Origin: a bacterium
Lineage (GTDB): Bacteria > Zhuqueibacterota > Zhuqueibacteria > Residuimicrobiales > Krinioviventaceae
DNA: 64,000 bases
Direction of reading: 5' to 3'
Assembly: GCA_963674595.2 (NCBI GenBank)
Contig: CAXXFV010000014.1
Coordinates: 32,001-96,000, forward strand
The translations under genes and the position numbers were made by a program. A model generated the notes under the pieces. It searched no databases. It worked only from the letters and a program-made list of their open reading frames with translations, and was not told the origin of the DNA. How positions within the stretch are numbered: the first letter of the stretch is position 1; each line of letters starts with the position of its first letter. This document shows, piece by piece, positions 1 through 35,340 of this stretch.

Positions 1-272
1 GACCTACCCGAGGGTCAAACAAAGCGGGCCGCTTTTTCCCTCCTATTTGGTCTTGCTCCGGGTGGGGTTTACCATGCCCTTAATGTCACCATTAAGGCGG
101 TGAGCTCTTACCTCACCCTTTCACCCTTACCTCAGGAAAACCTGAGGCGGTTTACTTTCTGTGGCACTTTCCTCGCTTCACAACGAGTTCCCGTTAGGAA
201 CCACCCTGCCCTACGGAGTTCGGACTTTCCTCATCTCATAAATAATGAAACGCAATCACCTAAACTACTTTG
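1..272 (-). ncRNA. rnpB: RNase P RNA, bacterial class A (3' end runs off the window start)
   Basis: The reverse complement contains GAGGAAAGTCCGAACT, AGTGCCACAGAAA, AAGGGTGAAAGGGTGAGGTAAGAGCTCACC, GGTAAACCCCAC and GAGCAAGACCAAATAG, the conserved RNase P RNA segments in order. The 5' end is approximate. Confidence 0.96.
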
Positions 273-3607: not shown

Positions 3608-6600
3608 TTAATTGATCACAAGCATTTTTCTGTTTTGAACATACTCTCCGGCTTTAATTCTGTAAAAATAGATACCACTAGGGACATATTGTCCCAAAAA
3701 TGAACGCCCGTCCCAAACAGCCTGATAATAGCCTGCCTGTTTTTTTTCGTTAATAATTGTTTTTACTTTTTGCCCCAATATATTATAAATACTAATGTCA
3801 ACATTTTGAGCAGCAGGTAGTTGATATTTAATGGTGGTTGAAAAACTTGCATTTGATTTCAGTGATAACGGATTTGGATAGTTTTGTGCCAATCCATATT
3901 TCTGAGGAATAATATCAGACAAATTACCATCAACACCGGAAGTTCCAACATTTAATTTAATCAATAATGTTTGAACGGGTTTTTGAGGATCATTACTTTC
4001 AAAAACTAAAAGGTTCTGATACCCTCCCAAACTTAACCAATATGTATCAAAATAAAGGCGCAGAACAGTTGAATCATTTTCACCAATTATACCGGAATAT
4101 GTATCGGATTCATACCATGACGCATTATATGGCGCATAGGTAATATAATACAACCCATCAGAAGGTGTAAATTCTATATATTCCCCATTTGGTGAAAAGG
4201 CCACTAAAAATTTCATTTTACTATCGACAGCAATTTGCGAATGGGTTACGACAGATTCAAAATGATAATTAGCCCTGGTAACAGATACTGGCGATGAATA
4301 GGGTAATACAGGTGTAAATGCTCCTATCCCTTCGTCTTCAAGCCAATACATAACCTGACTTGTTTCCCACGTTAGCCTAATAATTCGGTCAATACCCAAA
4401 TCACGAAAAGGCATTCCGGTTAGTGAATCACAATCCGCATCAATCCAAATATCATAATTCATGTGCTGATAAATAGCAGCATTAACATTAAACTCTTGCC
4501 AAAAAGAAATGGTAGTGGCGTCATGTCGCATTAATACATCACCCAAAAGTTTCTCATCTGAACTTTTTGGGACAGTATAAACTCTCCGCCAATTCATTAC
4601 ACTTGATTCATTACTAATTGGCTCAAAAGCACTTTCTTTTCCGTTATCTTTATTCTTAATGGCTCCATTTAAAGGATATTTGTTTTCAAAAGCTGTAAAA
4701 ACAAGTGACCCGGTGCCGTTATTTTTTAAAATGACAGAGTCGCGGCGTATCCCATTTTGCTGCATAGACACAACAATCGTGTCACATACAATGGACAATT
4801 GAGGTTTATATAAAATACATTCAAATGTCGTATCATTTTGAACAATAACATTTTCATAAATATGTTTAGCATAACCTTGTGCTTTGACGGTTATTTGATA
4901 GGGTTCTTTCGGTAAATGAAACACAAAAGAGCCATCCGCTTGCGTAAAAATTTTTCTTTCATTGTTCACAGCTAAATCGACAGGTAACTTTTCAACGATT
5001 AGCTGGGCACCTGGAATCATGTTAGAAGATCGGGAGTCTGTTACATTGATATTAACCAAACTGGTTTTTCTAACAACCAACGGTATATCAAAATCCCAGG
5101 TAAATCCATGCTGGTCTTTAAAAACAGCATGTAAAGACGCGTCATAATAATCCGGGCAATTATCTGCAATCCTGACAACAAAATTATCTTCTGCTTCTTT
5201 TTGCCCCTTTCCGGGAATCGTTCCCCACACTGCGGTAGAATCTATAACAGTTACATTTTCATCATCAGAATACAATATAGCAGAAACAACAGTTGCCGGA
5301 AATGAACTTGTATTTTTAATAACAGGACAAAATTCTATTAATTCACCAGGATTTACATAGCCATCATTATTACCAATTCCCGGGCCATCATTAATATTAA
5401 TGGGAAAAACAGAAATTTTCGGTCGTTGGTCCAATGCGGCTCCCCTAAACCAATCAAACACATCACCGATAAACTGACTTTTTGATTGCAGGGAAATAAT
5501 GTTTTCAATTCCAAAGACACAATAGACAAGTTTATATGTCCCGTCATCAACAGCTAACGCTGCCGTACCGGAAGACTGGACAATACCTTCTCCGTAGCGT
5601 GGTTTGTATAAAAGTATTGGAAAGGCAGGTTCTATCGGATCAATTTCAACCGGCCAACTATTATTTTCCTCCTCAAGGCTCAGAGTATCCAATGTTACAA
5701 CGCCATTTCCGGGAACGTTTTCAATATGAAAAATTCTTGCAGATTCATTAATAAATTCGGAATGTAAAACCTCAGTATAAAACGGTTTATCATACAAACG
5801 ATATCCGACAAGTGGACCGGACAATAAAAGCCGGCCACCATTTTTTAAAAATCGTTCCAAATTTACCTGGTCATCGTCTGTTAATGTCTCAACCGGTTCT
5901 TTGCCGGTGAACCAGACAACATTTTCATACCCTGAAAGTTTTGAATAAGGAACTGTACCGCTACGATTGACAAAAAATAAATCGACGGACAAACCTATTT
6001 CAGAAAAAGCATAAAGATATGGCCAATAATTCTGCGCATCACCATCATCAATAACCAGTAATGTCTTTGGTTGATTTATCAAAACACATACGAGAAAGTC
6101 ACCCAAAAAAGTGCCGTCCTCTTCATACAATTTTAAACCAAATTCCAAATGATGCGGAGGTGCGTTTTCATCAATTCTAACCTGAAAAGGAGATTGAGTA
6201 TTTCTAAAATCATTTATTATAGTACTTGAAAAAACACTTTCATTTTGCAGTATTTCAACATAAGGATCATTGCTTTCAAGTAATCCTTTCAATCCATTGA
6301 CATTCCGAAATCCTGTGTTTTTTAATAACAGGTAAAGATTACAGGTTTCACCCGCCTCGGGTATTTCATCATCATCACCGTTCGTTTCCTGCGTTGAAAA
6401 ACTGATATACTTCATGTCAGGTTGTCGGACCCGAATAATAAAACTGTTTACCCACGTTTGACCTTCAGAAGATTGTAACATTAAATAAAAATTAACAGGA
6501 TGGTTATTTGGGACATCAGACGAAATTGAAAAAACAAAATTATCAAAACCGAACGATTGTACATTAGAGACCAGGTCACCATATAAAGCACTTGAATCAA

Positions 6601-8107
6601 TAATTGTTATAAAGGGGTCACTGGTAACCAACTCAGCCCGGACATCTGGCGCAGTTGTATTACCAATATTTTCGACTTGTATTGCCAGTTCAACTGTCTC
6701 TCCGGGTTCCAGATAGTTATTACCATTACCCTTACTTGAACCCAGGTTATCATCATCAATAATTTCGGAAACATAGGAAACATAAGCATCGTTAATATCT
6801 GTCGGCGGCCCGGCGACTGTTGCAATTGTCGCAACACCGGCCTTGACGACATCCGAAAAAAAGTCCATGTTTATATTTCCTAAAACATCCTGAACACTAT
6901 GATAATAAGGAGAAAAATCAGTTTCAATAGCAAAAACCGTATGATAACCATGGGAATAAAACGGATAATGATCACTACCGCCTCCCACATAGGGATATTT
7001 CACAGGCTCAATATTCGTGTACTGTGATAACATATCAATAAACAGGTCTGCAAATCCATTAGATGTCTCATCTGCCTCAACATCTAACTGACAAACGGGA
7101 TTATTGCCGCCGCAGTTTCCAATCATGTCAAAATTCAGATAAAAGCCTATATTAAGCCCATTCTGCCAGGCCCTGCTGACCCAATTCTGGCTGCCGATCA
7201 ACCCCTGTTCTTCGGCTGCCCAGCAGGCAAACATTACAGTTGTTTCCAGGTCAATATCTCTCAATACCTTGGCTGTTTCCAAGGCAGCTATGGTGCCGGT
7301 GCCATTATCATCAACACCAGGCGCCAAAATCATTGGATTGCTGCCGTCACCTACAATTGAATCATAATGCCCGCCGATCATAATAATGCTGTCCGGATAA
7401 ACCGTCCCCCTTTTTATTGCTATAACATTTCGTTGAATTTTATGTAAAACAGGAACTGACAATGTGTCAAAATAAACTTCATAGCCCAAGTTCTCAAATT
7501 GTTCATATAACCATTGTCCGGCAGAATAAACAGAGTCTGAACCTGAATAGCGTGTTTTAAAAGCTTCCAGCCGTGACAAACCATTGTATAAACTTGTTTG
7601 CGAAACCCGATTTACGAGAAAAGAAACAACAGAGTTATCCAGAGTAGAATTAAAGGCTCCGGCTTTTATTTTAGCGGGCTCAACAAACGGCAACGACTGC
7701 TTTTGCAATTTGTATAAAGAGTAACCCTGGGCTTTTGATATGGATAATTGTTGATCTGTTTTAGCAAGTTGCAAGTCATCATCTTTATAAATAATATTAT
7801 CCGATTCAATTTCCTGAAAAACTTGGCCGTTCTTTGTCAATACATAATAGGATTGATCCCAGGCTTGTTCGTCAATAATGGTAAAATCATACCCGCGTTC
7901 GGTTAAACTATTCAGTTTTTGTTTTTCAATTGTCCCCAGCAGAAACAAAGGAGAACGATAATTTAAATCCAAAATATCAGCAAGATCGGCAAGTTGGTGA
8001 TGAGGGGAACGTTCGATTTTAACAAGACATGTATTTTGCGGCTCTCCGGCAAAAGCGGATAATACAATAAACAAGCCCAAATAAATTGAAAATAATTTTG
8101 TTCTCAT
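3608..8107 (-). CDS. Secreted multidomain M28-family metallopeptidase with repeated Ig/CARDB-like modules and FlgD-Ig/T9SS-type C-terminal domain
   Basis: Signal peptide; GGHYDS, GVDDNGTG, AAEEQGLIGS, NFDMIG, SDHYPF, YYHS; three 'DD..GN.N...EPGET'-type modules; C-terminal 'QNYPNP...SGIYFYRIKAG...RKMLVIN'. Confidence 0.88.
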   Translation of the reverse strand: MRTKLFSIYLGLFIVLSAFAGEPQNTCLVKIERSPHHQLADLADILDLNYRSPLFLLGTIEKQKLNSLTERGYDFTIIDEQAWDQSYYVLTKNGQVFQEIESDNIIYKDDDLQLAKTDQQLSISKAQGYSLYKLQKQSLPFVEPAKIKAGAFNSTLDNSVVSFLVNRVSQTSLYNGLSRLEAFKTRYSGSDSVYSAGQWLYEQFENLGYEVYFDTLSVPVLHKIQRNVIAIKRGTVYPDSIIMIGGHYDSIVGDGSNPMILAPGVDDNGTGTIAALETAKVLRDIDLETTVMFACWAAEEQGLIGSQNWVSRAWQNGLNIGFYLNFDMIGNCGGNNPVCQLDVEADETSNGFADLFIDMLSQYTNIEPVKYPYVGGGSDHYPFYSHGYHTVFAIETDFSPYYHSVQDVLGNINMDFFSDVVKAGVATIATVAGPPTDINDAYVSYVSEIIDDDNLGSSKGNGNNYLEPGETVELAIQVENIGNTTAPDVRAELVTSDPFITIIDSSALYGDLVSNVQSFGFDNFVFSISSDVPNNHPVNFYLMLQSSEGQTWVNSFIIRVRQPDMKYISFSTQETNGDDDEIPEAGETCNLYLLLKNTGFRNVNGLKGLLESNDPYVEILQNESVFSSTIINDFRNTQSPFQVRIDENAPPHHLEFGLKLYEEDGTFLGDFLVCVLINQPKTLLVIDDGDAQNYWPYLYAFSEIGLSVDLFFVNRSGTVPYSKLSGYENVVWFTGKEPVETLTDDDQVNLERFLKNGGRLLLSGPLVGYRLYDKPFYTEVLHSEFINESARIFHIENVPGNGVVTLDTLSLEEENNSWPVEIDPIEPAFPILLYKPRYGEGIVQSSGTAALAVDDGTYKLVYCVFGIENIISLQSKSQFIGDVFDWFRGAALDQRPKISVFPININDGPGIGNNDGYVNPGELIEFCPVIKNTSSFPATVVSAILYSDDENVTVIDSTAVWGTIPGKGQKEAEDNFVVRIADNCPDYYDASLHAVFKDQHGFTWDFDIPLVVRKTSLVNINVTDSRSSNMIPGAQLIVEKLPVDLAVNNERKIFTQADGSFVFHLPKEPYQITVKAQGYAKHIYENVIVQNDTTFECILYKPQLSIVCDTIVVSMQQNGIRRDSVILKNNGTGSLVFTAFENKYPLNGAIKNKDNGKESAFEPISNESSVMNWRRVYTVPKSSDEKLLGDVLMRHDATTISFWQEFNVNAAIYQHMNYDIWIDADCDSLTGMPFRDLGIDRIIRLTWETSQVMYWLEDEGIGAFTPVLPYSSPVSVTRANYHFESVVTHSQIAVDSKMKFLVAFSPNGEYIEFTPSDGLYYITYAPYNASWYESDTYSGIIGENDSTVLRLYFDTYWLSLGGYQNLLVFESNDPQKPVQTLLIKLNVGTSGVDGNLSDIIPQKYGLAQNYPNPLSLKSNASFSTTIKYQLPAAQNVDISIYNILGQKVKTIINEKKQAGYYQAVWDGRSFLGQYVPSGIYFYRIKAGEYVQNRKMLVIN

Positions 8108-9475: not shown

Positions 9476-10102
9476 TTATGCAATAAGCTTTTTATATCTC
9501 TGGTTTATTCGTTCCCAGTTTAAATTATTAACAAAATTATCGATATAAACCGCACGCCCGGCACCGTCTTTGTGATAATAAGCGTGCTCAAAAACATCAC
9601 AAGTTATAAGAGGAATACCTCCCCAAATAGCTCCATAGTGATGTTCATCTACCAGAACATTAATCAACCGTTTTGAGTATAGTGCATCATAAACCAATAT
9701 TCCCCAACCGCTTAACTTGGCAGAAAAAGCAGTTGCCTTGAAATCTTCTTTCCAGTTTTCAAAAGAGCCAAACTCTTTTTCAATAGCTTCAAAAATTTCA
9801 GGACCTTTTTTAGGGTCGCCGTCTCCACCTAATACGTCCCAATAAACATCATGTAAAAGTGCACCGGAATGATTCCAGGTGAAACGTCGTTTTAACTCGC
9901 CAAACTCACTATAGTTACCATTTGCTTTACTTGAATCAGAATTTACCAAACTATTTTCAATTGTATTTAAAGCTGCGACATAACCTTTATGGTGTTTATT
10001 ATAATGCCAATCGGATGTTTCCGGGCTCATAACGTCTGACAAAACGGTTTTCGCTTCTTCATCACTATAGGGTCTCTTTCCAATTTTCCATTCGTAAGAC
10101 AT
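9476..10102 (-). CDS. Fe/Mn superoxide dismutase
   Basis: HYNKHHKGYV, NHSGALLHDVYW, SGWG and DVFEHAYY metal-ligand motifs. Start moved to ATG 10102, which has an AGGAG RBS. Confidence 0.9.
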   Translation of the reverse strand: MSYEWKIGKRPYSDEEAKTVLSDVMSPETSDWHYNKHHKGYVAALNTIENSLVNSDSSKANGNYSEFGELKRRFTWNHSGALLHDVYWDVLGGDGDPKKGPEIFEAIEKEFGSFENWKEDFKATAFSAKLSGWGILVYDALYSKRLINVLVDEHHYGAIWGGIPLITCDVFEHAYYHKDGAGRAVYIDNFVNNLNWERINQRYKKLIA

Positions 10103-10345
10103 ATCTACTCCTGTAAAAACTATATTATTTGTAAATTTGATCATTGTAACATATTGTCATCAAGCATTATTCCCGGTGCAAAAAAATTTTTCTTTCTTGC
10201 AATTTATATGAGAAAATTGTAACGTTGCTTATAAAAATAATAATTTATTAAAGACAATATGGAACCAGAGAGATCATTCTACGTCTTATTTAATATCTAT
10301 TCCTTTCATCTTAAAAAAACGCCTATAAAAGGAAACAGATCAAAA

Positions 10346-13339
10346 ATGAAAATAAAACTAATTATATTGTCATTTATATTAATGCCGCTTTTGGGGTTTT
10401 CAGCCCAAAATTCAAACGAAGAACAGGACTTTTTTATTGCCAAAGGAATGTTCAGCGACCAATTGTATGATCTGGCGGCTACCCAATTCAGTGATTATTT
10501 AAAAAAACACCCGTCAAGTCCTCACGCTGAAGAAGCACATTTTCTATTATCCGAATGCTATTTCCAATCGCAAAACTATGCCAAGGCTGTTTCTTCCTAT
10601 AGAGAACTATTGGTTAATTATCCGGCCGTAGGTTTAAGAGACAAAAGCCAGTTTCGTATCGGAGAAACATTGATACACCTGGGAAAATACCGCGAGGCGG
10701 TGTCTGAATTTGAAACGTTTTTTAAATTATATGATGATAGTCCGTTAAATACAGACGCCCATTATTGGTATGCCGAAGCCCTCTATCACCTGGGTGAGAA
10801 TGATAAAGCGCTTGAGAATTATACACTGGTTTATAAAAACGCACCAAATAGTGCCCTGGCAGACTATGCCTATTATTCATCGGCCTATTTATATGAAAAA
10901 GCAAAAAAGTGGGACAAAGCCCTTTCAATATACAAAGAATTATTAAAAACCAAACCAAACAGTCCGCTTGTTGCACAGGCTTCCTACCGGATTGGTTTTA
11001 CAAGTTTTGGACAAGGAAATTATCAAAAGGCAACTCAATTATTATCAAAAGCAATTCAACAATATCCAAAAAGCGACCTGCGTGGTGAAGCACAATATTT
11101 TATCGGCGAATGTTTTTTTAAAGAAAATAATCTTGATAAAGCTATTCAAGCCTATCAAATTATTGCCAATATGGCCGGGCATGAATATGCTGATGACGCG
11201 CAATACAGCACCGGCTGGGTGTTATACAAACAGCAAAAATATCTTCAAGCCGCTGATGCTTTTAAAAAAGTACTGACACTCAGTTCGGACGAAAATCTAC
11301 TGGCATCATCATGTTTTCAAACCGGACGAAACCTGGTTCTCGCTAATAAAATTGACGAGGCAGCCCGCTATTTTAAAACAGTCATAGAAAAATATCCGGA
11401 TTCTCAGGACACACCAAATGCGTTATTTGAATATGCTTCTTTGCTGTTTCGTTTAAAAAATTATGCAGAATCCCGAACATATTTTATGACAATTGTAGAT
11501 AAATATAATAATGCGGCTGTTGCAGCCGAGGCATCCCTGATGGTGGGTGAATGTTTTTTGGCTGAAAATAATTTAAAAGACGCGGAACTGGCTTTTGAAT
11601 ACACAAAAGAAAATTTTAAAAAACCAAAAATAACAGCAAACAGTGTTTACAAGCTTGGCTGGCTGCAATTCAAAAAAGCAGACTATGGCGTTGCATTAAC
11701 AAATTTTAAAACTGTTATAAATACAACATCGGAACACAATGATGATGCTTTGTTTTGGTCTGCTGAAACATATTACAGAACAGAAAACTATAAAAAAGCG
11801 TATGATCTTTATCTGGAATATACCCAAAAATACCCGGATTCCACACGAATTACCGAAGCCTATTATGGTTTGGGTTATGCCGCGTTAAAAATAAATGATT
11901 TTACACAGTCTGCCCTTGCATTCGGTAAAACGGCTGAACGAACGTCTGATGCCGAAGTTAAGGCCGATGCTGTAATTCGTGAAGGTGATGCCTGGTTTAA
12001 TGCCAAAGAATATACCAAAGCGATTCAGGCATATTCCACGCTTACATCCATAACAAATGACGTTAACTTGCTGGCAGAATCTCACTTTCAGATGGGCCAA
12101 TGTTATTCCCGGACTGGTGAATTGTCAAAAGCACGGTCTTTTTATGAAAAAGTTCTGCTTGATTTTCGAACATCTCCGCTTGCCCCGGAAGCATTATTTC
12201 AAAGCGGACGCACAGCTTTTAAAATGAATGATTACCAGGCCGCTATTGTGGACTTTGACGAATTATTACAACGATTTCCTGAAAATGAATTTGTTGATGA
12301 TGCTATATATGCAACCGGCGACTGCTATTACAATCAGGGAAAATATAATGAGGCGGTTGCCCAATATCAAAAGCTCATAAACGAACATCCAAACAGTGAG
12401 CTTGTAGACGAGGCTGTCACCGGCATGCAATGGGCCATGATGCAGGCAGGAGATTCGGACCAGGCGTTAAATGTTGTCGATTCCTATGTTAGTAAACTGG
12501 ATGATAAAGATAAAGCTGCACAGCTTATTGTCCGCAAAGCAGAATTTGCAAAAAATCTTGAGCAGTATAACCAGGCCATTGAACAATATAATACGGTTCT
12601 TTTAAAATATGCCGGCACAAAAGCCGCTAAAAATGCTTGTTTCGAAATCGGAAATTGTTATACAAGTCTGGGTGATTCAACGGCCGCCATCGGATCCTAT
12701 AACAGGCAATATCAAAATTTCCCAAAAGCAGAACGGACACCGGATGCTTTATTAAAGGCAGGAGATATTTATTTAAATCGTAAAGAGTATGACAAAGCAT
12801 TAGAAACCTTGAAAAAACTCACTAACGAATACCCAACACATGAGCTTGCCGGTACTGCTTTTGTTAAAATCGGACAGATTTATCACATCCAAAAAAATCC
12901 GGAACAAGCCCAATCCAGTTTTCAAAAAGTTATTCATGATTATCCAAAGAGTTTGGATGTCTATTCGGCAAAAATTGGTCTTGCCCGTGTTTATATCGAA
13001 CTGAAACGTTTTCCAAACGCACAGGAAATGCTGGAAAATGTTCTGGATAATGCTCCGAAAGAAACAGCGGCCGAAGCACAATTTCTTATGGGCGAAATGT
13101 ATCAGGGTCAGGATTCCTTGCAGGACGCTGTTGTCGCATATTTAAAAACAAAATATCTTTATAGCGATCAAACAAAATGGGTTGTTAACAGCATTTTTAA
13201 AGCTGCTGAATGTAATGAAAAACAGGGCAGACTCGCCGACGCACGCAGACTGTACCAATCCATATTAAAAGAATACCCGGCAGAAACAACCTTTGTTAAT
13301 CTGTCAAAAAAACGACTTGAAGAACTGGTTGGACAATAA
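10346..13339 (+). CDS. Large periplasmic TPR-repeat protein (YbgF/BamD-like repeats)
   Basis: Signal peptide MKIKLIILSFILMPLLGFSA; about 25 TPR units with the 'YP.S....A.F..G..Y' pattern across the whole length. ORF is open from 10259. Confidence 0.9.
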   Translation: MKIKLIILSFILMPLLGFSAQNSNEEQDFFIAKGMFSDQLYDLAATQFSDYLKKHPSSPHAEEAHFLLSECYFQSQNYAKAVSSYRELLVNYPAVGLRDKSQFRIGETLIHLGKYREAVSEFETFFKLYDDSPLNTDAHYWYAEALYHLGENDKALENYTLVYKNAPNSALADYAYYSSAYLYEKAKKWDKALSIYKELLKTKPNSPLVAQASYRIGFTSFGQGNYQKATQLLSKAIQQYPKSDLRGEAQYFIGECFFKENNLDKAIQAYQIIANMAGHEYADDAQYSTGWVLYKQQKYLQAADAFKKVLTLSSDENLLASSCFQTGRNLVLANKIDEAARYFKTVIEKYPDSQDTPNALFEYASLLFRLKNYAESRTYFMTIVDKYNNAAVAAEASLMVGECFLAENNLKDAELAFEYTKENFKKPKITANSVYKLGWLQFKKADYGVALTNFKTVINTTSEHNDDALFWSAETYYRTENYKKAYDLYLEYTQKYPDSTRITEAYYGLGYAALKINDFTQSALAFGKTAERTSDAEVKADAVIREGDAWFNAKEYTKAIQAYSTLTSITNDVNLLAESHFQMGQCYSRTGELSKARSFYEKVLLDFRTSPLAPEALFQSGRTAFKMNDYQAAIVDFDELLQRFPENEFVDDAIYATGDCYYNQGKYNEAVAQYQKLINEHPNSELVDEAVTGMQWAMMQAGDSDQALNVVDSYVSKLDDKDKAAQLIVRKAEFAKNLEQYNQAIEQYNTVLLKYAGTKAAKNACFEIGNCYTSLGDSTAAIGSYNRQYQNFPKAERTPDALLKAGDIYLNRKEYDKALETLKKLTNEYPTHELAGTAFVKIGQIYHIQKNPEQAQSSFQKVIHDYPKSLDVYSAKIGLARVYIELKRFPNAQEMLENVLDNAPKETAAEAQFLMGEMYQGQDSLQDAVVAYLKTKYLYSDQTKWVVNSIFKAAECNEKQGRLADARRLYQSILKEYPAETTFVNLSKKRLEELVGQ

Positions 13340-13352
13340 AAATTAGGTAAAA

Positions 13353-15074
13353 ATGGATATACAGATAAAAATGAAAAATACAATCATTTCCAGCATAATT
13401 TTATTTATGGCCGTATCAAACGTACCGGCCCAACAAAAAGCAACACCGCCGCCGACAAAAATTATTCTGCCATCGGATACGACAAAAGTTGCACCTGTGA
13501 AAAAAAAGCAAGCCAAGCAAGACCCTCAGCTTGAACTTCCTGATGTATTGATTCTTGGTAAAGACAAAACAGCCCGGGTTATCGACAGCAAGGGTGATCT
13601 GAAACCGGATTCACCAACGCTTATAACACCAGGATCACCTTACGAACCCCTGTCACAATGGTTTGACCAGGAAGCTGAAAAACCGGAATTAACACCCAAA
13701 TCTGCTCAAGTATTCAGAACAAGCTGGCTGTCACTTCAGGGTGGAGGTTATTCCACTGTTCTGGCTGATGCCGGTCACTGGCAAAACCTGAAAACCGGTG
13801 ATATTCGTTTCCGGGGCTGGTTTGACCGAAGCAGCGGACAACACACCAATTCTCAATACAGTAAAGGTGGAATGAATTTTAAAGCAAACCAAACCCTAAG
13901 TCCGGATTTGACCGGACGTATTTTTGCCGGTGTTGATTTGTTTTCATACGGATTATATCAAAATTTGAATTTTAAAAAAGCAGAGCGTAACGGTCACTTT
14001 TGGAACGTTGGCGGAGAATTGGAATATGGTGCTGATAAATTATCGAACGGTTTACTAAGTTTTCAACTTGGAAGCACCACCCTTGAAACAGACACCCTGC
14101 AAAACACCATAAAAAGTAATGACTTTTGGTACACGTTTACCGGCAACTATTCATTCTATACATCAGCAATCAAGTGGGACCTTGGCGGGAAATATCTCAG
14201 AGAATCATTCGACATGGAAACAGATTCAACAGAAACCAAAAACGCGTCCGGCGAAATTTCTGTTGAAACACTTTTTCCTTTTTCCCGGTCAATAACAGGT
14301 ATTGTCGGCGTCACCTATCAAAATGTGGACTCGGATTCTATTAATAAAAAATCACGCATTTCACCCAATGCACGGCTGAATTTTGTTTTGGGAAAGAACA
14401 TCGGATTAACGACCTCTTTATTTACCGGATATAAAGTTGAAACATTTTCCCAATATTTACAAAAAAATCCATTTATGGAACACCACATTCCATTTGTTCC
14501 GGATGAGACAAAATTGGGATTAAAATTTGAAACGACGTTTCAAATCAGCCCGGAATTAAAAGTGATCGGCAGTTTATCCAGATCATGGATGGAACAAATA
14601 AATTATTGGCAATACAATTCTCAAACAGGTTTACTGGCATTGAATCAGATCAATGATGTTGTTTTAACAGAGATATTGGTGGGCGGTGTATATAATCTTT
14701 CAAACAAAACAAGACTTGAAGCAAGCTTGATAAATTATACAGACAAACTTACAAATTCCGATTTTATGCCGAATTTTGAACGGCTTCCCTACTATCCGCA
14801 ATATCGCATCCCTGTCAGGGCCTCTATAGAACTTTTACCCGATTTTAATATTTCAGTAGAAGCGGACATAAACGGTGAACGCAAAAGCCGAATTAATTCA
14901 CAGGATACATTACCGGCTTATGCTTTACTGAATATTTCTGTAAGCAAAACATTTGAAAAACGTTTTACGGCCCTTTTTACAGCCCGAAATTTATTTGATG
15001 CTGATTATGTTTTATGGGAAAATTATCCGGAAACAGGAGTTCATGTTTTAGCAGGATTACGAGTAAAATTTTAG
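13353..15074 (+). CDS. Outer-membrane beta-barrel, TonB-dependent-receptor-like but short
   Basis: Signal peptide; TonB-box-like LELPDVLILG; amphipathic strands; TBDT-type C-terminus 'LPAYALLNISVS...ARNLFDADY...GLRVKF' with terminal Phe. Start may be 13371. Confidence 0.75.
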   Translation: MDIQIKMKNTIISSIILFMAVSNVPAQQKATPPPTKIILPSDTTKVAPVKKKQAKQDPQLELPDVLILGKDKTARVIDSKGDLKPDSPTLITPGSPYEPLSQWFDQEAEKPELTPKSAQVFRTSWLSLQGGGYSTVLADAGHWQNLKTGDIRFRGWFDRSSGQHTNSQYSKGGMNFKANQTLSPDLTGRIFAGVDLFSYGLYQNLNFKKAERNGHFWNVGGELEYGADKLSNGLLSFQLGSTTLETDTLQNTIKSNDFWYTFTGNYSFYTSAIKWDLGGKYLRESFDMETDSTETKNASGEISVETLFPFSRSITGIVGVTYQNVDSDSINKKSRISPNARLNFVLGKNIGLTTSLFTGYKVETFSQYLQKNPFMEHHIPFVPDETKLGLKFETTFQISPELKVIGSLSRSWMEQINYWQYNSQTGLLALNQINDVVLTEILVGGVYNLSNKTRLEASLINYTDKLTNSDFMPNFERLPYYPQYRIPVRASIELLPDFNISVEADINGERKSRINSQDTLPAYALLNISVSKTFEKRFTALFTARNLFDADYVLWENYPETGVHVLAGLRVKF

Positions 15075-15109
15075 CATAAAAATAATTTAAATTATTCAGG
15101 AGAAAATAC

Positions 15110-15739
15110 ATGTCGCTACCTCAGATTATTGTCAAAGGCGGAATTATGATGATTCCGATTGCTTTATGCTCTATTATCGCTTTGGCTATTCTCATTGAAA
15201 GACTTATTTCATTACGAAAAATTCAAATCAACGCCAGGACATTCGTGCTTCAGGTAAAAAATCTGCTACTGCGTGGAAAAATACAGGAAGCTATTTTATT
15301 ATGTAAAGAAACACCCGGACCCATTGCCGGAATTACAAAGGCAGGTTTATTAAAACACAACCGTTCACGTGAAGAGATTAAAGACGCTATTGAAGGCGCT
15401 GCAAAATCTGAAGTATTTTATCTGGAAAGATACCTCGGTATATTGGGAACAATTGCGGCGATTACCCCGCTGGTCGGATTTTTAGGAACGGTTACAGGAA
15501 TGATAAAGGCTTTTATGCAGGTACAGTCCCTGGGCGGCAATGTTGATGCATCCGTACTTGCCGGAGGTATATGGGAAGCGCTCATCACAACCGCCGCAGG
15601 TTTGAGCGTCGGTATTCCGGCGTTGATTATTTATAACTGGTTGCAGGCAAAGGTCGAACATCATGTTTTCCAAATGCAGGAAAGTTCAAACGATTTAATG
15701 GATATGTTGCTGGAGAAGGAGAGCAGTAATGAAAATTGA
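15110..15739 (+). CDS. exbB: MotA/TolQ/ExbB proton channel protein
   Basis: LGTIAAITPLVGFLGTVTGMI and GIWEALITTAAGL; three TM segments. Confidence 0.93.
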   Translation: MSLPQIIVKGGIMMIPIALCSIIALAILIERLISLRKIQINARTFVLQVKNLLLRGKIQEAILLCKETPGPIAGITKAGLLKHNRSREEIKDAIEGAAKSEVFYLERYLGILGTIAAITPLVGFLGTVTGMIKAFMQVQSLGGNVDASVLAGGIWEALITTAAGLSVGIPALIIYNWLQAKVEHHVFQMQESSNDLMDMLLEKESSNEN

Positions 15740-16130
15740 AACAACCCGTAAACGTATGGTTGCTTTTTCTGCAATATCGCTGACCGATATTGTGCTGCTT
15801 CTTTTGATATTTTTTCTTTTGACATCATCGTTTGTTGTACAACCCGGCATAAAAATTAAGTTACCCAAAGCCGCTTCAGGGCAACAGGATGATTCGGACA
15901 AAATATTTCTGACGGTAAATCAGCATGAACAGATATTTTTAAACCAAAAACGAATCAGCCGGTCAGAGTTGAGCAGTGCTTTACGGCAATTGCTAAAGGA
16001 AAAACCGGATCGCCTGGTTGTGATACGTGCCGATAAAGATTTATCATTAGAATCGACCATACGAATAATCGATACAGCCAAATTGGCAGGTGCAGAACGT
16101 TTCATGATAGCTACCGAGTCCGAAATATAG
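15729..16130 (+). CDS. exbD: ExbD/TolR biopolymer transport protein
   Basis: SLTDIVLLLLIFF with the conserved TM Asp, LPKA and VVIRAD. Confidence 0.93.
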   Translation: MKIETTRKRMVAFSAISLTDIVLLLLIFFLLTSSFVVQPGIKIKLPKAASGQQDDSDKIFLTVNQHEQIFLNQKRISRSELSSALRQLLKEKPDRLVVIRADKDLSLESTIRIIDTAKLAGAERFMIATESEI

Positions 16131-16139
16131 GAGAGTATC

Positions 16140-16946
16140 ATGGAAAAATTTTATGACATGTTTTCTGATATTCGGAAAACAATCCTGCTGTCAACAATCA
16201 TTCATATTCTGATATTACTGTTTTTCCTGCTCTTTCATGTTGGAATAAATTTTGAAACGTCGGAATTTTCTGAAATCAGTTTTGTCGCCTCAACATCAAC
16301 CCAGGTAACAGCTTCAAAACCGGAGATAGAAAAAACAAGCGCAGTTCAGCAAGAACCTGTTGCCGCCACACCGGCGCCTGAAAAGCCCGTACATGAATCC
16401 AAAGCAGAACCGGTAAACCTGCCGAAACGCAGGATGCTGGAAGATGATAAACCGGAAATAATCAACAGAACAACCGGTAAACTGACACCACAGGTACAAA
16501 ACGAACGAATACATACTCCGTCACAGGAATATGGTACGGATCGGGTCGTACAGCATCCGGGAGCATCTACCAGCGGAGAAAAATTATCAACAGGACCGTC
16601 AGACACACCACTACCGGGAACATCTTCCGGACCGGTTAGCGACATTGGCACTATTAACCAGGGCCAGCCCTTTACCATTGAAGGTGACGCAGCAAAACGT
16701 TCAATTCTCAAGCAGGTCATTCCCAAATATCCTGTGGGACTGCAAAAAGAAGCTGTCGTTAAAATTCGATTTACCGTATTGCCTGACGGTCGTGTAGGAC
16801 AAATGATTCCGGTACAAAAAGGCGACAGTGTATTGGATGAAATCACCATGAAATCTTTACAACAATGGCGGTTTAATCCCCTGTCCCCTTCTGCCGAACA
16901 AAAGAATGTGCAGGGAATTATTACATTTCGTTATGAGCTGGAATGA
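16140..16946 (+). CDS. tonB: TonB-family energy transducer
   Basis: N-terminal TM with STIIH (SxxxH), Pro/Thr/Ser-rich linker, C-terminal 'PKYP...VKIRFTVLPDGRV...QWRFNP'. Confidence 0.88.
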   Translation: MEKFYDMFSDIRKTILLSTIIHILILLFFLLFHVGINFETSEFSEISFVASTSTQVTASKPEIEKTSAVQQEPVAATPAPEKPVHESKAEPVNLPKRRMLEDDKPEIINRTTGKLTPQVQNERIHTPSQEYGTDRVVQHPGASTSGEKLSTGPSDTPLPGTSSGPVSDIGTINQGQPFTIEGDAAKRSILKQVIPKYPVGLQKEAVVKIRFTVLPDGRVGQMIPVQKGDSVLDEITMKSLQQWRFNPLSPSAEQKNVQGIITFRYELE

Positions 16947-22252: not shown

Positions 22253-23434
22253 ATGAAAAAATCTCTGGACATCAAGATCGAGCGAATTCACGCTGACCAT
22301 AGTTGTAAAGATTTTATGCTGGCAGACGCCAAAGATGCGGATATGGCATTTGGCATTGCGGCTCCGGGTAAAAGCCCCGAACATCATGCACAGGAAGGGA
22401 AATTTCGCACATTAGCAGAATACCGCGATATTATCCGACAGGTTATTAATCAGGCCCAGGTTGATATTGTTCTCATGTCTGCAAGCACAAGTGAAATATT
22501 GACCATTGAAGAAGGTCTGTTTACAAACAGTCCGGTTACACCGGCGGCTCGCGCCAATGATACCACTGACGTTCATGTCATTACCGGCGGTAAATACATC
22601 AGCCAACCAACCCAACCCTTTCGTTCGGCAACCATCGACCACATGCAGTGCGGCAAATACGAATGTACGCCGGAAGAACGTAAACTGGGCGCCAACCTCG
22701 GACTTTATTCGGTAACCTATAACAACAACCTGGAACTCGACCTTTTAACATTAGAAAGATTCCACGAGTTTCGCCTTGAAGCAGAAAAAAAAGGCTTTCG
22801 TTATTTTCTTGAAGTTTTTAACCCAAATGTGCCTGAAGCAGTTGACCCGGAAAAACTGGGACAATTTATAAATGATCATATTGTAAGGGATTTAGCCGGT
22901 GTTACCAAAGCCGGGCGTCCTCTCTTTCTCAAAGTTGTTTACCAGGGACCAAAATTTATGGAACAACTGGCAACCTATGATCCGGATTTGATCCCGGGAA
23001 TCCTGGGCGGTTCCTCAGGAACGACCTATGATGCATTTAAAATGCTTCAAGATGCTAAAAAATACGGAGCGCGTATCGCCCTTTACGGACGCAAGATCAA
23101 CCATTCCGAGCATCAGTTGGCGTTTATTTCATTTTTACGTTTAATAGCAGATGGTGATATAGCAGCCGAAGAAGCGGTGAAAGCCTATCACAGCGTTCTG
23201 GAAAAACTTGGAATCCGTCCCTATCGAACACTGGAAGAGGACATGCAGGTTACAAATCAGGCTGTTTCCTATGGCGGCAGCGGCGGTACGGTTTCCGTTC
23301 CGGCAGCTATCAGCAAAAAGCCAAGCACCAACGGCCTTCCTCAAACACAATCGTCCGAACCTGATTTCAGCAAGATGACCCCAAAAGAAAAAATCGAATA
23401 TAACCGAAAAAAATGGTCAAATATTTTAGGATAG
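22253..23434 (+). CDS. Uncharacterised class I aldolase-like TIM-barrel protein
   Basis: ADAKDADMAFG, DIVLMSAS, FLEVFNPN, PLFLKVVY (candidate Schiff-base Lys), GILGG and ALYGRKIN resemble DhnA/LacD-type barrels. Fold assignment is inference. Confidence 0.55.
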   Translation: MKKSLDIKIERIHADHSCKDFMLADAKDADMAFGIAAPGKSPEHHAQEGKFRTLAEYRDIIRQVINQAQVDIVLMSASTSEILTIEEGLFTNSPVTPAARANDTTDVHVITGGKYISQPTQPFRSATIDHMQCGKYECTPEERKLGANLGLYSVTYNNNLELDLLTLERFHEFRLEAEKKGFRYFLEVFNPNVPEAVDPEKLGQFINDHIVRDLAGVTKAGRPLFLKVVYQGPKFMEQLATYDPDLIPGILGGSSGTTYDAFKMLQDAKKYGARIALYGRKINHSEHQLAFISFLRLIADGDIAAEEAVKAYHSVLEKLGIRPYRTLEEDMQVTNQAVSYGGSGGTVSVPAAISKKPSTNGLPQTQSSEPDFSKMTPKEKIEYNRKKWSNILG

Positions 23435-28271: not shown

Positions 28272-29574
28272 TTATTCCAAATATTTTGACATGTATTGAT
28301 AATCCGGTGTTAATTGACCGTTTTTTACAATCATGGCCTTTTTAATTTCCTGTGAAAGTTTTAATTTTTCCATTGGCTGTGAAAAATCCGCTTCCACAAG
28401 TTCAGGAACATACTGCCATAAAGTTTCACTAAAAGTACGCGAGGCGTCGCGCGGCAACTCTGCCGGCAGATTATCGACGGCCATAATCACAACACCTTCT
28501 CCCTGCACACCATCAATAATTTTGTTTTTCAATGCATTGTAAACAAAAGCAGGTTTATCAGGTGTCGTAACTTTTTCCGTACATTCGATGGCGCCGTTAA
28601 TATCACAGCTTATATCACCTATCACCAGCAATTTCAATTTTTCAGCAGACTGTTGTTTTTTTAAAAAAGATTTTGTAACCAATCGGGGATACTTTTCCTC
28701 CCAGTAAATCCCATTTATTAAAATAGTAAGATAAGGAAGAAACTCTGTAAAACGCGGTTGATATGCTTCCGGATAGGTATAATATTCATCTAAATCAAAA
28801 GCATGGCCCCGATGTTTCGGTTTGACCATATGTTCTTCTTTAAAAATAACTTTATAAAAATGGTTTTCATAACTGCTTTCCAAATCAGGTAATTCTTCAG
28901 GGCTGATGTGAATATGCGGTAAAAGATTAAAAATCTCCTGAGAGCCGGTGGAAACACGACCATAACCGGTAAAACCAAAAACATAGGGAGCAAATCGTTT
29001 GGGCAAGCCATACTGCAATACTTTTTTACCCACAGCATGAATGTGTTCCATAGCATCATCAAGACAACGGTATTGATAGGCCGAACGCAGGGCCGATAAC
29101 GAGTGAGTCAAATCCCATAACCTTCATACGCTGCCCCAGTAGCGCCAGCGTATCAATCATTCCGGCCAAACCGGCATATCTTCCAAAAAACACAAGTCTG
29201 GCACCCAAAGAATTTTTTATACACTCATAATCGACAAGCGTACAATTTAAAGCCAGTATCTTTTTCAATAACGGCATGTTATAAGCCTGACCCTTAATTG
29301 TGTGCGAGAAAAATAAATATGTTTTTTGAGGAAATAATAAATCAACTGGTATTTCTTTAACGGCGAGTATTACCGGGCATTCATTTAAATTTTCACTGAT
29401 TTTTGCACCGGCTTCCAGATATTCCTGGTCTGTATAGGCCCTGTTGGGAAACGGCTGCACAATGGTCTCAATTCCGTATTCGGATTTTAAATATTCGACA
29501 TGTTTCGGAATAATGGGGACTCGGCGCTCCCATTCATTTTTATCTTCACGCCGGATACCAATCAACTTTGCCAT
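28272..29574 (-). CDS. Lysine-ketoglutarate reductase (AlaDH/PNT fold, AASS-LKR type); one apparent frameshift near 29102
   Basis: IRREDKNEWERR, VKEIP, FFSHTIKGQ, DYE, FFGRYAGLAG, NGIYW..KYPRLVT, DISCD.NGAIE and AVDNLPAELP. Confidence 0.88.
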
Positions 29575-31249: not shown

Positions 31250-31533
31250 AATGGACAATGTAGGTATTTTTCACATGTTCGGCAAGCAGGAAAATCTTGA
31301 GCCAATGAAACAATACTTTTTTCACAAAAACAGAAAATATTGATCTAAATCAAAATTTGTGAAAGTAAAAATCCATATACTTAACTTACTGTATTATATT
31401 CAATCTAAAATCAACCAGGCTCTTTTTATTTGATAATTGGCCCAAAATCATTAAATTCTATTAACTTTTGAATCTTGCCAAAATATCAGATATGATATTT
31501 TTATCCATTATATTTACTATGAGAGGCATAACC

Positions 31534-33184
31534 ATGAAAATTATGAAAACAAGCTTTATCATACTGTTTATTGTTTTCGGATACAGTTTGTCATTTGCTG
31601 CTCCTGAAAACAAAAAAACAGAATCTTTTGAAAACCATCAAATATCTTATAAAAAAATAGAGAATATTGTTTCTGCGACAAATCAAAAAATTATGACCCC
31701 CCAAACCATACATATCGTCTTTCCGGACACATCTCTGGAAAAAGTCGTCAGACAGGTCTTAGGAAAGCCAACCGGAGATATTCTTGAAACAGATATGGAA
31801 TCTATCATTTCTTTAAATGCTGAAGGTAAAGGCATTTATGATTTAACAGGGCTGGAGTACGCCGTTAATATGTCCGAGCTGAATCTTTCGAATAACCAAA
31901 TAAGCGACATCTCCTCTTTACAATACATGCCCGGTTTGACACAACTCTATATTTATAACAATAAAATTGCCGATATATCACCTATTGCCAATCTAACAAA
32001 CCTGGTCACGGTTTCATTTTACACAAACCAAATCAGCGATATTTCAGCACTAGGAAACTTGACAAACCTGAAATCACTCTATCTGGGATGGAATTATATC
32101 AGCGATATTGATGTGTTGGCTAGCCTTACAGAATTACTGGATCTGGATTTCACAGCAAATCTTATATCAGATATAAGTGCAGTTGCCAATCTTACCAATT
32201 TAAACACACTTTTTCTATCGACAAATAATATTAATGATATTTCAGAGTTACAGAGTTTAACCGCGCCTGTCATTAATAGACCTCTCATGGAACAAAATTT
32301 CTGATATTACTCCTTTACAAAATTTGACGAATTTAATCAACCTGTATCTTTCCGGGAATAAAATAAACGACATAAATATTTTACAAAATTTTTCAGCCAT
32401 TGAATTACTCTTTCTTAAATCAAATCAACTGGACAATAGTGACTTGTTACAACTTTACAATCTAAATAACATGTACATTCTTAATTTACAGGATAATCCC
32501 GGAATCATCAGCGGGAGTGCTGTGCAGACATTGGCAGACAATCTTGCCGCTATGAATTGTGAAGATATTACCTGGGACGGCACCTGCGGAGTTGATTCCA
32601 ACAAAGCTGTGATCTGTTGGGTATCTGCCGATACAACAGAATCCGGAGAAACCGTCACGGTCCAGGCAACAGCGACTAATTCTTCTCAATCACAGCTAAA
32701 AATGCAAATCAACTGGGGTGACGGGAATATATCCGAATATTCCTCTTTACAGGACAATGCTTCGACTTTTGAATTTCAACATATTTATTCTACAGCCGGA
32801 AACATTTGATATTACAGTAACAGCGCAAAACAACCAGAACCAGGAAATCGGTGTTTCAAAATCGGTTGCCATTATAATTACCCGGTTCAAGTTTGGTTGA
32901 AAAAAATGATAATGCTTTGCCGGAAATTTTATTATGGCAAAATTATCCGAATCCATTTAATCCGTCCACAACAATCCGTTATGAGTTAGCCAAAGCCGAA
33001 CATGTTACTTTGTCTGTTTACAATTTGACCGGACAAAACATTGCCACATTAACAAACGAATTTCAATCAGCCGGTACGCATGAGATAAAATGGACCCCTG
33101 ACAATCTGCCCACCCGGAATTTATTTCTATAAATTATATGTAGGAAATGTGGTTAAAACCCGAAAATTTATCTTACAAAAATAA
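31534..33184 (+). CDS. Secreted internalin-like LRR protein with PKD-like and FlgD-Ig/T9SS-type C-terminal domains; four apparent frameshifts
   Basis: Signal peptide; 'FPDTSLE' cap; 22-aa 'L.NL..L.L..N.ISDIS.L' repeats; 'INWGDG' PKD; 'QNYPNPFNPST'. One ORF results if single bases are removed at ~32262, ~32801, ~32882 and ~33114. Confidence 0.82.
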
Positions 33185-34240: not shown

Positions 34241-34282
34241 AAAAATGCCGGATTGTAAAACATGTAACAATCCGGCGTTTTT
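34241..34282. terminator. Bidirectional intrinsic terminator
   Basis: AAAATGCCGGATTGT-loop-ACAATCCGGCGTTTTT between convergent genes. Confidence 0.78.
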
Positions 34283-34303
34283 ATCTAAATTCTACAAATA
34301 ATC

Positions 34304-35340
34304 CTAGGGAATCAGCACACCTTTTTAATGCTTTTAAATTTTCAATATCATCAAAAACCTGTTCCCAATCTTCCAACGGTTTTTTATGGGTGATTACTTT
34401 TTCCGGGATTATTTGTCCGTTGTGAATGAGATGAATGGACCTGTCCCAGGACTCGTAGCATGTTGAAAGATTAAAATTAACATCCACCACCTTGAAAGCA
34501 AATTTATCCCAGGGTACAACAACGTCCTTGTTTCCGGTTAATCCGATGACACAAATCTTGCCCATTTTGCGGACAAGGTCTACCGTCATGGGGATGGCTT
34601 TTGGTGAACCACTGCATTCCACCACAATGTCCGCACCGAGGCCGTTTGTCATTTCCAGAACAGCTTCAACCGGATCGGTTTCACCGATATTGATAATATT
34701 ATCAAATCCCAATTCTTTCGCAGTCCTTAAAACGAAGATCAACATCTCCCGGTGTTCCGACAAGCACAACCTCTCTGGCACCGGCAGCCCGTGCCACCAT
34801 AGCGCCGATGAGTCCGATCGGGCCGGGACCCTGGATAACCACAAAATCACCGGCCGTGACTTTGGTGTGAAGAATAAGGTCTGTTACAATATTGGCTGTG
34901 GGTTCCACAATCACAGCCTGGTCCCATGACATGGTCTCCGGGATTTTGTGTAACAATTTTTCAGGGTAACAGATATATTTGGTCATGCCGCCGTGAATGC
35001 CCCATCCGGGTGAGCGTTTTTGCGGACATATTTGTATATTGCCGGTGCGGCACAAATAGCAGGAACCGCAGGCCAGGGTATGCGGTTCTGCCACAATTTT
35101 ATCACCGATTTTTAAATTTTTACACTCTTTACCAAGTTCAATAACCGTTCCGGTAAACTCGTGTCCAAGAATAACCGGCGGCCAATAGGGAAATTTATCA
35201 TGACGTATATGTATATCCGAGCCGCAAATACCGCAAGCGGCAATTTCTATCTTAACCTCATCAGGTTTGGGTTGAGGTTCGGGCATGTCCACAATTTCTA
35301 TATGACCGACTCCTCGCTGGGTCTTAACTAATGATTTCAT
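34304..35340 (-). CDS. Zn-dependent medium-chain (sorbitol/threonine-DH-like) dehydrogenase; two apparent frameshifts (~34726, ~34324)
   Basis: GICGSD, GHEF, C..C..C...C structural Zn site and GPGPIG; C-terminal half 'GADIVVECSG...VITH..PLEDW...KGVLIP*'. Confidence 0.88.

Follow-up and report, generated by a model that had tools for sequence, protein, structure and literature searches.

What is an outer-membrane (OM) barrel for when its gene stands between that of a giant periplasmic repeat protein and those of a TonB motor? The question is raised by a stretch of 64,000 nucleotides (hereafter the window; contig CAXXFV010000014.1 of assembly GCA_963674595.2, positions 32,001 to 96,000, forward strand) from a bacterium of the Zhuqueibacterota, in which five open reading frames (ORFs) on the + strand form a candidate operon at 10346-16946 for a tetratricopeptide repeat (TPR) protein, a barrel, ExbB, ExbD and TonB. 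Our answer, held tentatively and at somewhat less than an even chance, is a TonB-gated, TPR-scaffolded pore for auxiliary housekeeping of the periplasm rather than the uptake of a single nutrient. This reading is based on 22 strands without a plug, on a conserved tail, box-like motif and K74, on invariant linkage to the TPR gene and frequent linkage to an intact motor, and on the OM co-fractionation, co-fitness and shared mild phenotypes of BT2816 and BT2817, the inferred orthologues in Bacteroides thetaiotaomicron. The features are as follows (aa, amino acids; TBDT, TonB-dependent transporter; TM, transmembrane; pLDDT, predicted local distance difference test).

10346..13339, + strand: 997-aa all-TPR protein, putative scaffold in the periplasm and partner protein for the barrel (Pfam, structure model, synteny)
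13371..15074 (alternative start 13353), + strand: plugless 22-strand OM barrel of TBDT fold, 567 aa, C-terminal Phe (AlphaFold2 model, VIA-align, no Plug Pfam match)
13530..13559, + strand: TonB-box-like motif, barrel residues 54-63, putatively bound by TonB (135-row alignment A2)
13530..13715, + strand: Pro-rich N-terminal tail of about 60 residues in the place of the plug (model of low pLDDT, alignment)
13716..15071, + strand: barrel domain, residues 116-567, 22 strands with short loops (AlphaFold2 model, alignment)
15110..15739, + strand: proton-channel subunit of the ExbB/TolQ family, 209 aa, three TM segments (PF01618, E 3e-33; hydropathy)
15729..16130, + strand: ExbD, 133 aa, TM Asp20 intact (PF02472, E 9e-32)
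16140..16946, + strand: TonB, 268 aa, with TM helix S18xxxH22, linker motifs and TonB_C with Y197-P198 (PF03544, TIGR01352, alignment A5)

The barrel had been described in the original prediction as a short TonB-box barrel. Its AlphaFold2 model (from the 135-row alignment; pLDDT 87.7, predicted TM-score (pTM) 0.80) comprised 22 strands over residues 116-566, mostly with pLDDT above 90, preceded by an N-terminal region of low confidence in which no plug fold is seen. VIA-align superposed it on BtuB (1nqe) with Z 24.1 and a root-mean-square deviation of 3.0 over 406 aligned residues, and on BtuB1 of B. thetaiotaomicron (8blw) with Z 22.9; the top Foldseek and VIA-align matches were all TBDTs, the first other match being the Mtr complex (Z 16.9), followed by weaker ones to AlgE (Z 13.3) and the polysaccharide secretin 4y25 (Z 12.6). 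At the sequence level, Pfam assigned the barrel to no family, TIGR01783 matched its C-terminal part at E 2e-4, a weak TBDT similarity far below the cut-off, and a profile search of the PDB found TBDTs only weakly and at the C-terminus (E at least 0.12). By definition, a TBDT consists of plug and barrel (10.1101/2023.03.17.533168), and no Pfam match to the plug PF07715 was obtained in the window barrel. The match was absent from 18 of the 19 proteins scanned, with P0170 as the only protein matching, a canonical TBDT that was the last hidden Markov model (HMM) match of the list and also forms one row of the 135-row alignment. The barrel is a naturally plugless TBDT fold, neither a small barrel nor a canonical transporter, and it is short because the plug is absent; the conserved box-like motif stood up, but the shortness did not denote a small barrel, and the canonical plugged 22-strand transporter with a known substrate was not what was found.

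An HMM search with the barrel returned 778 cluster representatives at E ≤0.001 and 153 at ≤1e-10, and among the 150 matches listed the full-length relatives mostly measured 510-610 aa. The named close relatives are KSB1 proteins of 36-45% identity (four of the 20 non-self matches carry an organism name), which makes a KSB1 origin of the window probable; Atlas look-alikes of 544-577 aa occur in Bacteroidota and share no common Pfam family, a Cytophagia member matched the family profile at E 9e-18, and the Cytophagia barrel P0162 gave no tblastn match in a plasmid collection. Conserved residues of the barrel (G156/N160, Y193-L195, N366-P367, P473-Y474, G502-R504 and N540-W549) would, going by TBDT topology, mostly face outside in predicted extracellular loops.

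In the tail, the box-like motif and the downstream K74 form the most conserved segment (P57 91%, G63 93%, K74 91%; n = 135), the motif alternating hydrophobic residues, and a comparable segment (hydrophobic strand, conserved Lys, Pro-rich stretch) was recognised by eye in the Bacteroidales and Cytophagia members. The distance from the motif to strand 1 has a median of 60 aa (range 54-84, n = 135), while the Pfam plug profile has 107 positions. The motif may be bound by the C-terminal domain of TonB. The TBDT fold and the box-like motif would also suit a reduced TonB-dependent importer, in which tail and in-folded loops form a mini-plug and a small solute (an osmolyte, ion or peptide) is passed to the TPR protein; this we consider unlikely, and its further evidence is given with the motor, the gene neighbourhoods and the mutants below.

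The TPR protein was modelled as 53 helices, i.e., 26.5 hairpins (mean pLDDT 89, pTM 0.49), without a second domain, in line with the predicted all-TPR protein of about 1000 aa. Its N-terminus resembles a signal peptide by eye, with no Cys within the first 30 residues. A fold search gave generic TPR solenoids alone (TM-score ≤0.21), and the PorW/SprE model reached 173 bits against a cut-off of 250, a score coming from generic TPR repeats. Conserved acidic and aromatic residues (e.g., W471/E474 and D541/R545/D548) map to helix A; as evidence for a peptide groove they were discounted, several occupying a position common to most repeats. Atlas look-alikes of about 990-1000 aa occur in Ignavibacteriota and Bacteroidota, one of which bears the automatic name 'putative component of TonB system'. 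Comparable TPR proteins of about 1000-1100 aa are also present in Planctomycetota, Verrucomicrobia and Elusimicrobia (e.g., P0219, P0244, P0289 and P0291).

The best-scoring models for the repeats were of the YbgF/CpoB and BamD types, which speaks for a cargo-free mechanical tether standing in for Tol-Pal, with the barrel as OM anchor, the TPR protein as CpoB-like strut and TonB pulling. Bacteroidetes are without identifiable tol-pal loci according to the accessible text of PMC12204202, as such a substitute would have it. The operon also shares with Tol-Pal (TolQRA-TolB-Pal-CpoB) a 5:2 motor, an SxxxH transducer and CpoB-like repeats, but its transducer carries TonB_C, the NCBIfam models for TolQ, TolR and TolA all remained below their cut-offs (tolA_full 23.3 against 59.45), and the operon and the 45 window proteins scanned contain neither TolB nor Pal. 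The CpoB-type scores are moreover sums over generic repeats, no peptidoglycan-binding partner is present in the operon, and an anchor would hardly need a pore of 22 strands, so that the tether is rather improbable.

Gene order was examined by one genome scan with the box motif as query, which matched 32 stretches, 23 of them confirmed; the query biases these loci to KSB1-type sequences, so that they are not a survey of the Fibrobacteres-Chlorobi-Bacteroidetes (FCB) group, and their labels are mixed (KSB1, Calditrichota, 'Cytophagia', 'Deferribacteres' and Cloacimonadota). In all 23, the gene immediately before the barrel encodes a TPR homologue (three of these genes are cut by contig ends; that of L009 has just 54 codons). 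The exbB gene directly follows the barrel in 17 of the 23 and the full ExbB-ExbD-TonB set is present in 16, the contig of L003 stopping inside exbB. Two contigs stop at or in the barrel, which leaves 21 loci informative for the motor, and in four of these, all KSB1-type, the motor is absent within 9 kb of the barrel and prmA is next instead (Pfam-checked in two). The four cluster with L014 at 100% support (Shimodaira-Hasegawa-like approximate likelihood-ratio test, SH-aLRT) in a quick midpoint-rooted tree without a clade test, which fits a single rearrangement that these sequences may share. In this clade (L010, 10590-11540; L012, 10660-11532; L019; L022), prmA after the barrel is accompanied in L010 by a DUF4390 gene (Pfam), and a gene of the YegS/DAGK family lies upstream of the TPR gene.

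A tblastn search of the plasmid collection with the TPR protein added three Bacteroidales records (L024-L026), in all of which the TPR gene is followed by a barrel gene of 540-594 aa with no motor gene adjoining. The barrels of B. finegoldii and P. distasonis matched the family profile in hhalign at 99% probability (E 2e-19 and 8e-18). These 'plasmid' records carry genes typical of chromosomes (topA, ahpCF, SusCD) and are likely to be pieces of chromosome under a wrong label; in B. finegoldii, ahpCF is near the TPR-barrel pair.

Because the TPR gene was linked to the barrel in all 23 loci of the scan and in all three Bacteroidales loci and linkage to the motor is partial, the conserved unit is the TPR protein with the plugless barrel, and the motor is its frequent yet separable neighbour. 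The TPR gene is accordingly syntenic elsewhere. Calling the motor 'dedicated' was an overstatement: adjacency in 17 of the 23 loci agrees with it, but the motor is missing beside the pair in the four KSB1-type and the three Bacteroidales loci. The missing motors favour a TonB-independent pair, in which TPR protein or tail plugs the pore statically and the adjoining genes are the cell's general Ton motor in one lineage. As expected for a shared motor, ExbB and ExbD (54-84% identical) are far more conserved than barrel (22-43%) and TPR protein (25-56%), with ExbB at 58-84% across 17 loci. We nevertheless regard such a pair as improbable, since no part of the tail is better conserved than the box-like motif, and since motor linkage spans deep branches, with those KSB1-type loci that lack the motor forming one clade of the quick tree.

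The motor itself has all features of an ExbB-ExbD-TonB system, namely the MotA/TolQ/ExbB domain, the ExbD Asp, SxxxH and TonB_C, with ExbB, ExbD and TonB_C all above the Pfam cut-offs and the TonB C-terminal model TIGR01352 passing at 28.7 against 27.1. The intact TM Asp and SxxxH of the original prediction were borne out by alignment: ExbD D20 does not vary among the 11 sequences aligned, nor does TonB H22 among 14, and conservation of S18 reaches at least 90%. A transducer of TonB type rather than TolA type is a point for the importer. The TonB linker contains two conserved motifs, EF..I.F (E45/F48) and P95-K-R-R98. The latter (window 16419-16433, +) is basic, followed by acidic residues and situated in an otherwise variable linker, and was present in 14 of 14 TonBs; speculatively, it could be a binding site for the TPR protein or the motor.

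The layout given in the original prediction, five co-oriented genes with gaps of 13, 35, -11 and 9 nt, was reproduced exactly; the first gap is 31 nt when the barrel starts at ATG 13371 (567 aa), which agrees with the starts of most homologues, instead of 13353 (573 aa). The TPR ORF has a second in-frame ATG upstream at 10259, with 10346 as the most likely start. The operon is flanked by a divergent Fe/Mn superoxide dismutase (SOD) gene on one side and a convergent EEP-family gene on the other (Pfam), and a promoter scan of 10100-10400 was uninformative (1 site against 2.7 expected). The Pfam scan covered 45 window proteins (9 + 36), seven of the 51 ORFs of at least 150 aa lying outside it, and within this scope the operon and the scanned proteins contain no SusD, ABC importer or regulator, as had been claimed along with the lack of tolB and pal. 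The SOD gene (window 9476-10144, -) is kept upstream of the TPR gene in four of 26 related loci (L002, L005, L006 and L021); its copies are 78-82% identical and all four loci belong to the window's own clade, so that this linkage is probably shared ancestry.

Around the pair in the related loci, the other neighbours vary, and conserved nearby genes for a lid lipoprotein, an ABC importer, catabolism or regulation are absent, which tells against the importer. Compared with TBDTs such as BtuB, FyuA, OprC and SusC, the window barrel has the 22-strand fold, the N-terminal box-like motif and adjoining ExbB-ExbD-TonB genes in common, but differs in lacking PF07715, in having just about 60 aa from the box to strand 1, in its short loops, and in a conserved periplasmic TPR partner of about 1000 aa instead of lid, ABC importer and regulator. 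In contrast to the SusCD utilisome, there is no SusD or other lid lipoprotein, and the partner is a TPR protein of about 1000 aa without lipobox Cys whose orthologue is annotated with a signal peptidase I (SPI) signal.

The locus tags BT2816 and BT2817, taken as the likely B. thetaiotaomicron counterparts, are automatically annotated as 'TPR domain protein, putative component of TonB system' and as 'TonB-dependent receptor' and form the same gene pair with the same sizes; they differ from the window operon in that no motor genes stand beside the three Bacteroidales pairs. Published primers for BT_2817 encode MKRT... and ...GGLSFSF, against MKRS... and ...GGLSFRF in the B. finegoldii barrel, and orthology of BT2816/BT2817 to the window pair is likely, as judged from these sequences. 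For P. gingivalis, PG1651/PG1652 were presumed as possible orthologues; only a TPR listing for PG1651 was found, and they were not used.

In the accessible data of PMC6222051, BT2817 stays in the OM and is kept out of vesicles, with a log label-free quantification (LFQ) intensity of 10.64 in the OM and 9.19 in the inner membrane (IM), and BT2816, a non-lipoprotein with an SPI signal, shows 10.51 and 9.33; an OM enrichment of BT2816 is as expected if an OM partner holds it. OM retention and vesicle exclusion of BT2817 are likewise what a tether would produce. Fitness data exist for both genes in the accessible part of PMC8121099, i.e., they are non-essential, and each heads the co-fitness ranking of the other (0.80). 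Five specific-phenotype rows for BT2816 and six for BT2817, of -1.2 to -1.7, include shared defects on arabinogalactan, on heparin and at 350 mM NaCl, BT2817 being also affected with aspartate as nitrogen source. OM genes of the polysaccharide utilisation loci for heparin and arabinogalactan are needed in the same experiments, and because they are separately required, BT2816/BT2817 are not the importer of these substrates. More generally, phenotypes across chemically unrelated conditions are unlike single-nutrient uptake and count against the importer, in agreement with the original prediction that the apparatus does not serve nutrient uptake and is no canonical importer.

At 350 mM NaCl, three of the seven listed genes were detrimental to lose, the glycine-betaine permease gene BT1750, BT2816 and BT2817 (same source and scope), an association that again favours the importer, and the salt sensitivity of the mutants likewise fits the tether. 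The tether is opposed by the viability of the mutants and by NaCl being the sole specific stress, unlike in tol-pal mutants. In the accessible data of PMC12578637, a BamA pull-down was not enriched for BT2816 or BT2817 (log2 fold changes 0.24 and 0.39, adjusted p >0.7), and both were unchanged in a bamH deletion; the accessible texts of PMC12611786 and PMC12578637, papers on the β-barrel assembly machinery, do not mention the pair. The proposed essential housekeeping role in OM biogenesis or division is not supported, given viable mutants with defects of only -1.2 to -1.7, NaCl as the sole stress listed, and the pull-down.

Four window proteins with C-terminal Pfam matches (FlgD_ig, Por_Secre_tail and CHU_C) resembling the C-terminal domain (CTD) of type IX secretion system (T9SS) cargo, at 3608-8107 (-), 43189-44622 (+), 47519-48655 (+) and 62146-63999 (-), one of them an M28 peptidase, are in favour of the original speculation that the machine energises CTD export in place of PorL/PorM; together with a core machine for OM-protein or lipoprotein biogenesis, this is the least probable of the explanations weighed here. 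Retention of the pair in B. thetaiotaomicron, which is not known to possess a T9SS, speaks against these roles, as do its non-essentiality there, the pull-down and the bamH data. No T9SS machinery gene was recognised among the Pfam-scanned window proteins, nor any T9SS gene beside the pair in the related loci, where just eight flanking proteins were Pfam-scanned. Export of a protein through a TBDT does exist and would be in its favour: the TBDT Oar exports PopC with ExbBD-TonB (PMC6434023, accessible part), a precedent for the favoured pore as well.

For the TonB-gated, TPR-scaffolded pore, the following working model is proposed. TPR protein and plugless barrel would form a stable OM complex facing the periplasm, in which the 60-residue tail replaces the plug, passing alongside or into both TPR groove and lumen and exposing the box-like motif, so that tail and TPR protein together would seal the pore. 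ExbBD-TonB would pull the box, whereby the pore may open or reset, with the TPR protein as conduit or brace. The motor would be co-transcribed in most KSB1-type genomes and supplied in trans elsewhere, and its energy may be spent on clearing or passing bulky periplasmic cargo (dead-end glycans, polypeptides) under polymer influx or salt load. A precedent for contact between such parts is the linker of the TonB-like GltG, modelled as wrapped round the TPR protein GltD in the accessible text of PMC11761067. The bolder version, an undescribed class of TonB-powered OM machines extending from KSB1 to gut Bacteroides, in which a tail through the TPR solenoid gates a plugless TBDT for export or clearance of periplasmic macromolecules driven by the proton-motive force (PMF), instead of nutrient import, we regard as doubtful.

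Several points weigh against the pore. The motor does not adjoin the pair in seven of 24 informative loci, and the tail, with its low pLDDT (33-60), could still fold as a small plug. The B. thetaiotaomicron data come from putative orthologues that are about 12% identical in the profile alignment. BT2816 is also abundant in the supernatant of the vesicles (log LFQ 9.95 against 8.29 for BT2817; PMC6222051, accessible data), so that part of it is free. NaCl is the sole stress listed for the pair out of 56 stress compounds tested, and tonB/exbBD genes account for 0 of the 7, 19 and 13 specific-phenotype rows of the three experiments (PMC8121099, accessible part); phenotypes common to no Ton gene also support the TonB-independent pair. 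Against that pair, B. thetaiotaomicron has 11 partly redundant TonBs according to the accessible text of 10.1101/2023.07.07.548152, and this redundancy would mask Ton phenotypes. Insertions in BT2816 may be polar on BT2817, which makes co-fitness weak evidence for the TPR protein, and cargo and direction of transport are proposals only.

Among exporters that combine TPR and barrel (AlgK/AlgE, PgaA, PelB, BcsC and Slam), the TPR part lies N-terminal to or upstream of an open barrel, and the barrels have 14-18 strands, no known TonB box and a place beside synthases or substrates. The window barrel differs from these by its 22 strands and box-like motif, in an operon without synthases or substrates. 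Similar to the window operon, the Vibrio TonB2/TonB3 systems (TtpB-TtpC-ExbB-ExbD-TonB-TtpD) combine a TonB operon with a TPR accessory, and TtpD2, the TPR protein required for TonB2 iron uptake, is a further argument for the importer (both from the accessible text of PMC6957404). TtpD2 has 425 aa against 997 aa here, however, the window operon is without genes of TtpB or TtpC size and without a DUF3450 match, and TonB2 serves canonical iron receptors whereas the window operon carries a plugless barrel.

The Agl-Glt gliding complex of Myxococcus likewise has a TolQR-like motor, transducers resembling the TonB C-terminal domain, periplasmic TPR proteins and OM barrels (PMC11761067, accessible text), but comprises at least 17 proteins; its porin-like GltABH barrels, adhesin and cytoskeletal links are all missing from the window operon, the window barrel is of TBDT fold, and the gliding_GltC model scored 21 bits against a cut-off of 450. 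Oar-Ton export of PopC, also of Myxococcus, resembles the window system in employing a TBDT-fold barrel with ExbBD-TonB for a non-uptake job, but the plug of Oar bears its TonB box, and no giant TPR partner is reported in the accessible part of PMC6434023. The force-transducer survey PMC12204202 describes, in its accessible text, other TPR-linked motors, the TPR-barrel-ExbBD-TonB operon not being among them. A full-text literature search yielded no characterisation of the TPR-barrel pair, most subscription papers lying outside its coverage so that absence from print is not established, and a full-text search for TonB receptors that lack the plug and have a TPR partner returned no paper; to this extent the operon matches no characterised system, as originally predicted. 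In the main text of papers, BT2817 appears just as an OM marker, called a 22-strand TonB-dependent receptor.

Elsewhere in the window, a Zn-dependent dehydrogenase gene (34281-35340, -), an AlaDh/PNT-family gene (28272-29574, -) and possibly a leucine-rich repeat (LRR) gene (31468-32809, +) are each split in two ORFs, the first two pairs overlapping, which suggests frameshifts or assembly indels. The RNase P class A RNA at 1-271 (-) is cut by the window end. No Pfam match at E ≤0.001 was obtained for 22253-23434 (+), 41739-42557 (+), 52175-53230 (-) and 58539-59063 (-); by eye, the first product resembles a soluble enzyme and the second a multi-pass membrane protein.

Taken together, the TPR protein with its plugless barrel is a real, widespread and apparently uncharacterised variant of the TonB system, and the pair in gut Bacteroides, abundant, dispensable and unstudied, looks like an overlooked envelope machine. 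A natural plug-less TBDT family with a TPR partner poses the question of how the pore is sealed and what TonB pulls on, and the KSB1 operon provides the genetic link between the pair and ExbBD-TonB that is missing from the Bacteroidales loci. With the pair abundant in the OM of a tractable gut model with mutant phenotypes, these proposals are directly testable, and they bear on how bacteria of the FCB group, without Tol-Pal, may manage their periplasm under polysaccharide or salt load.

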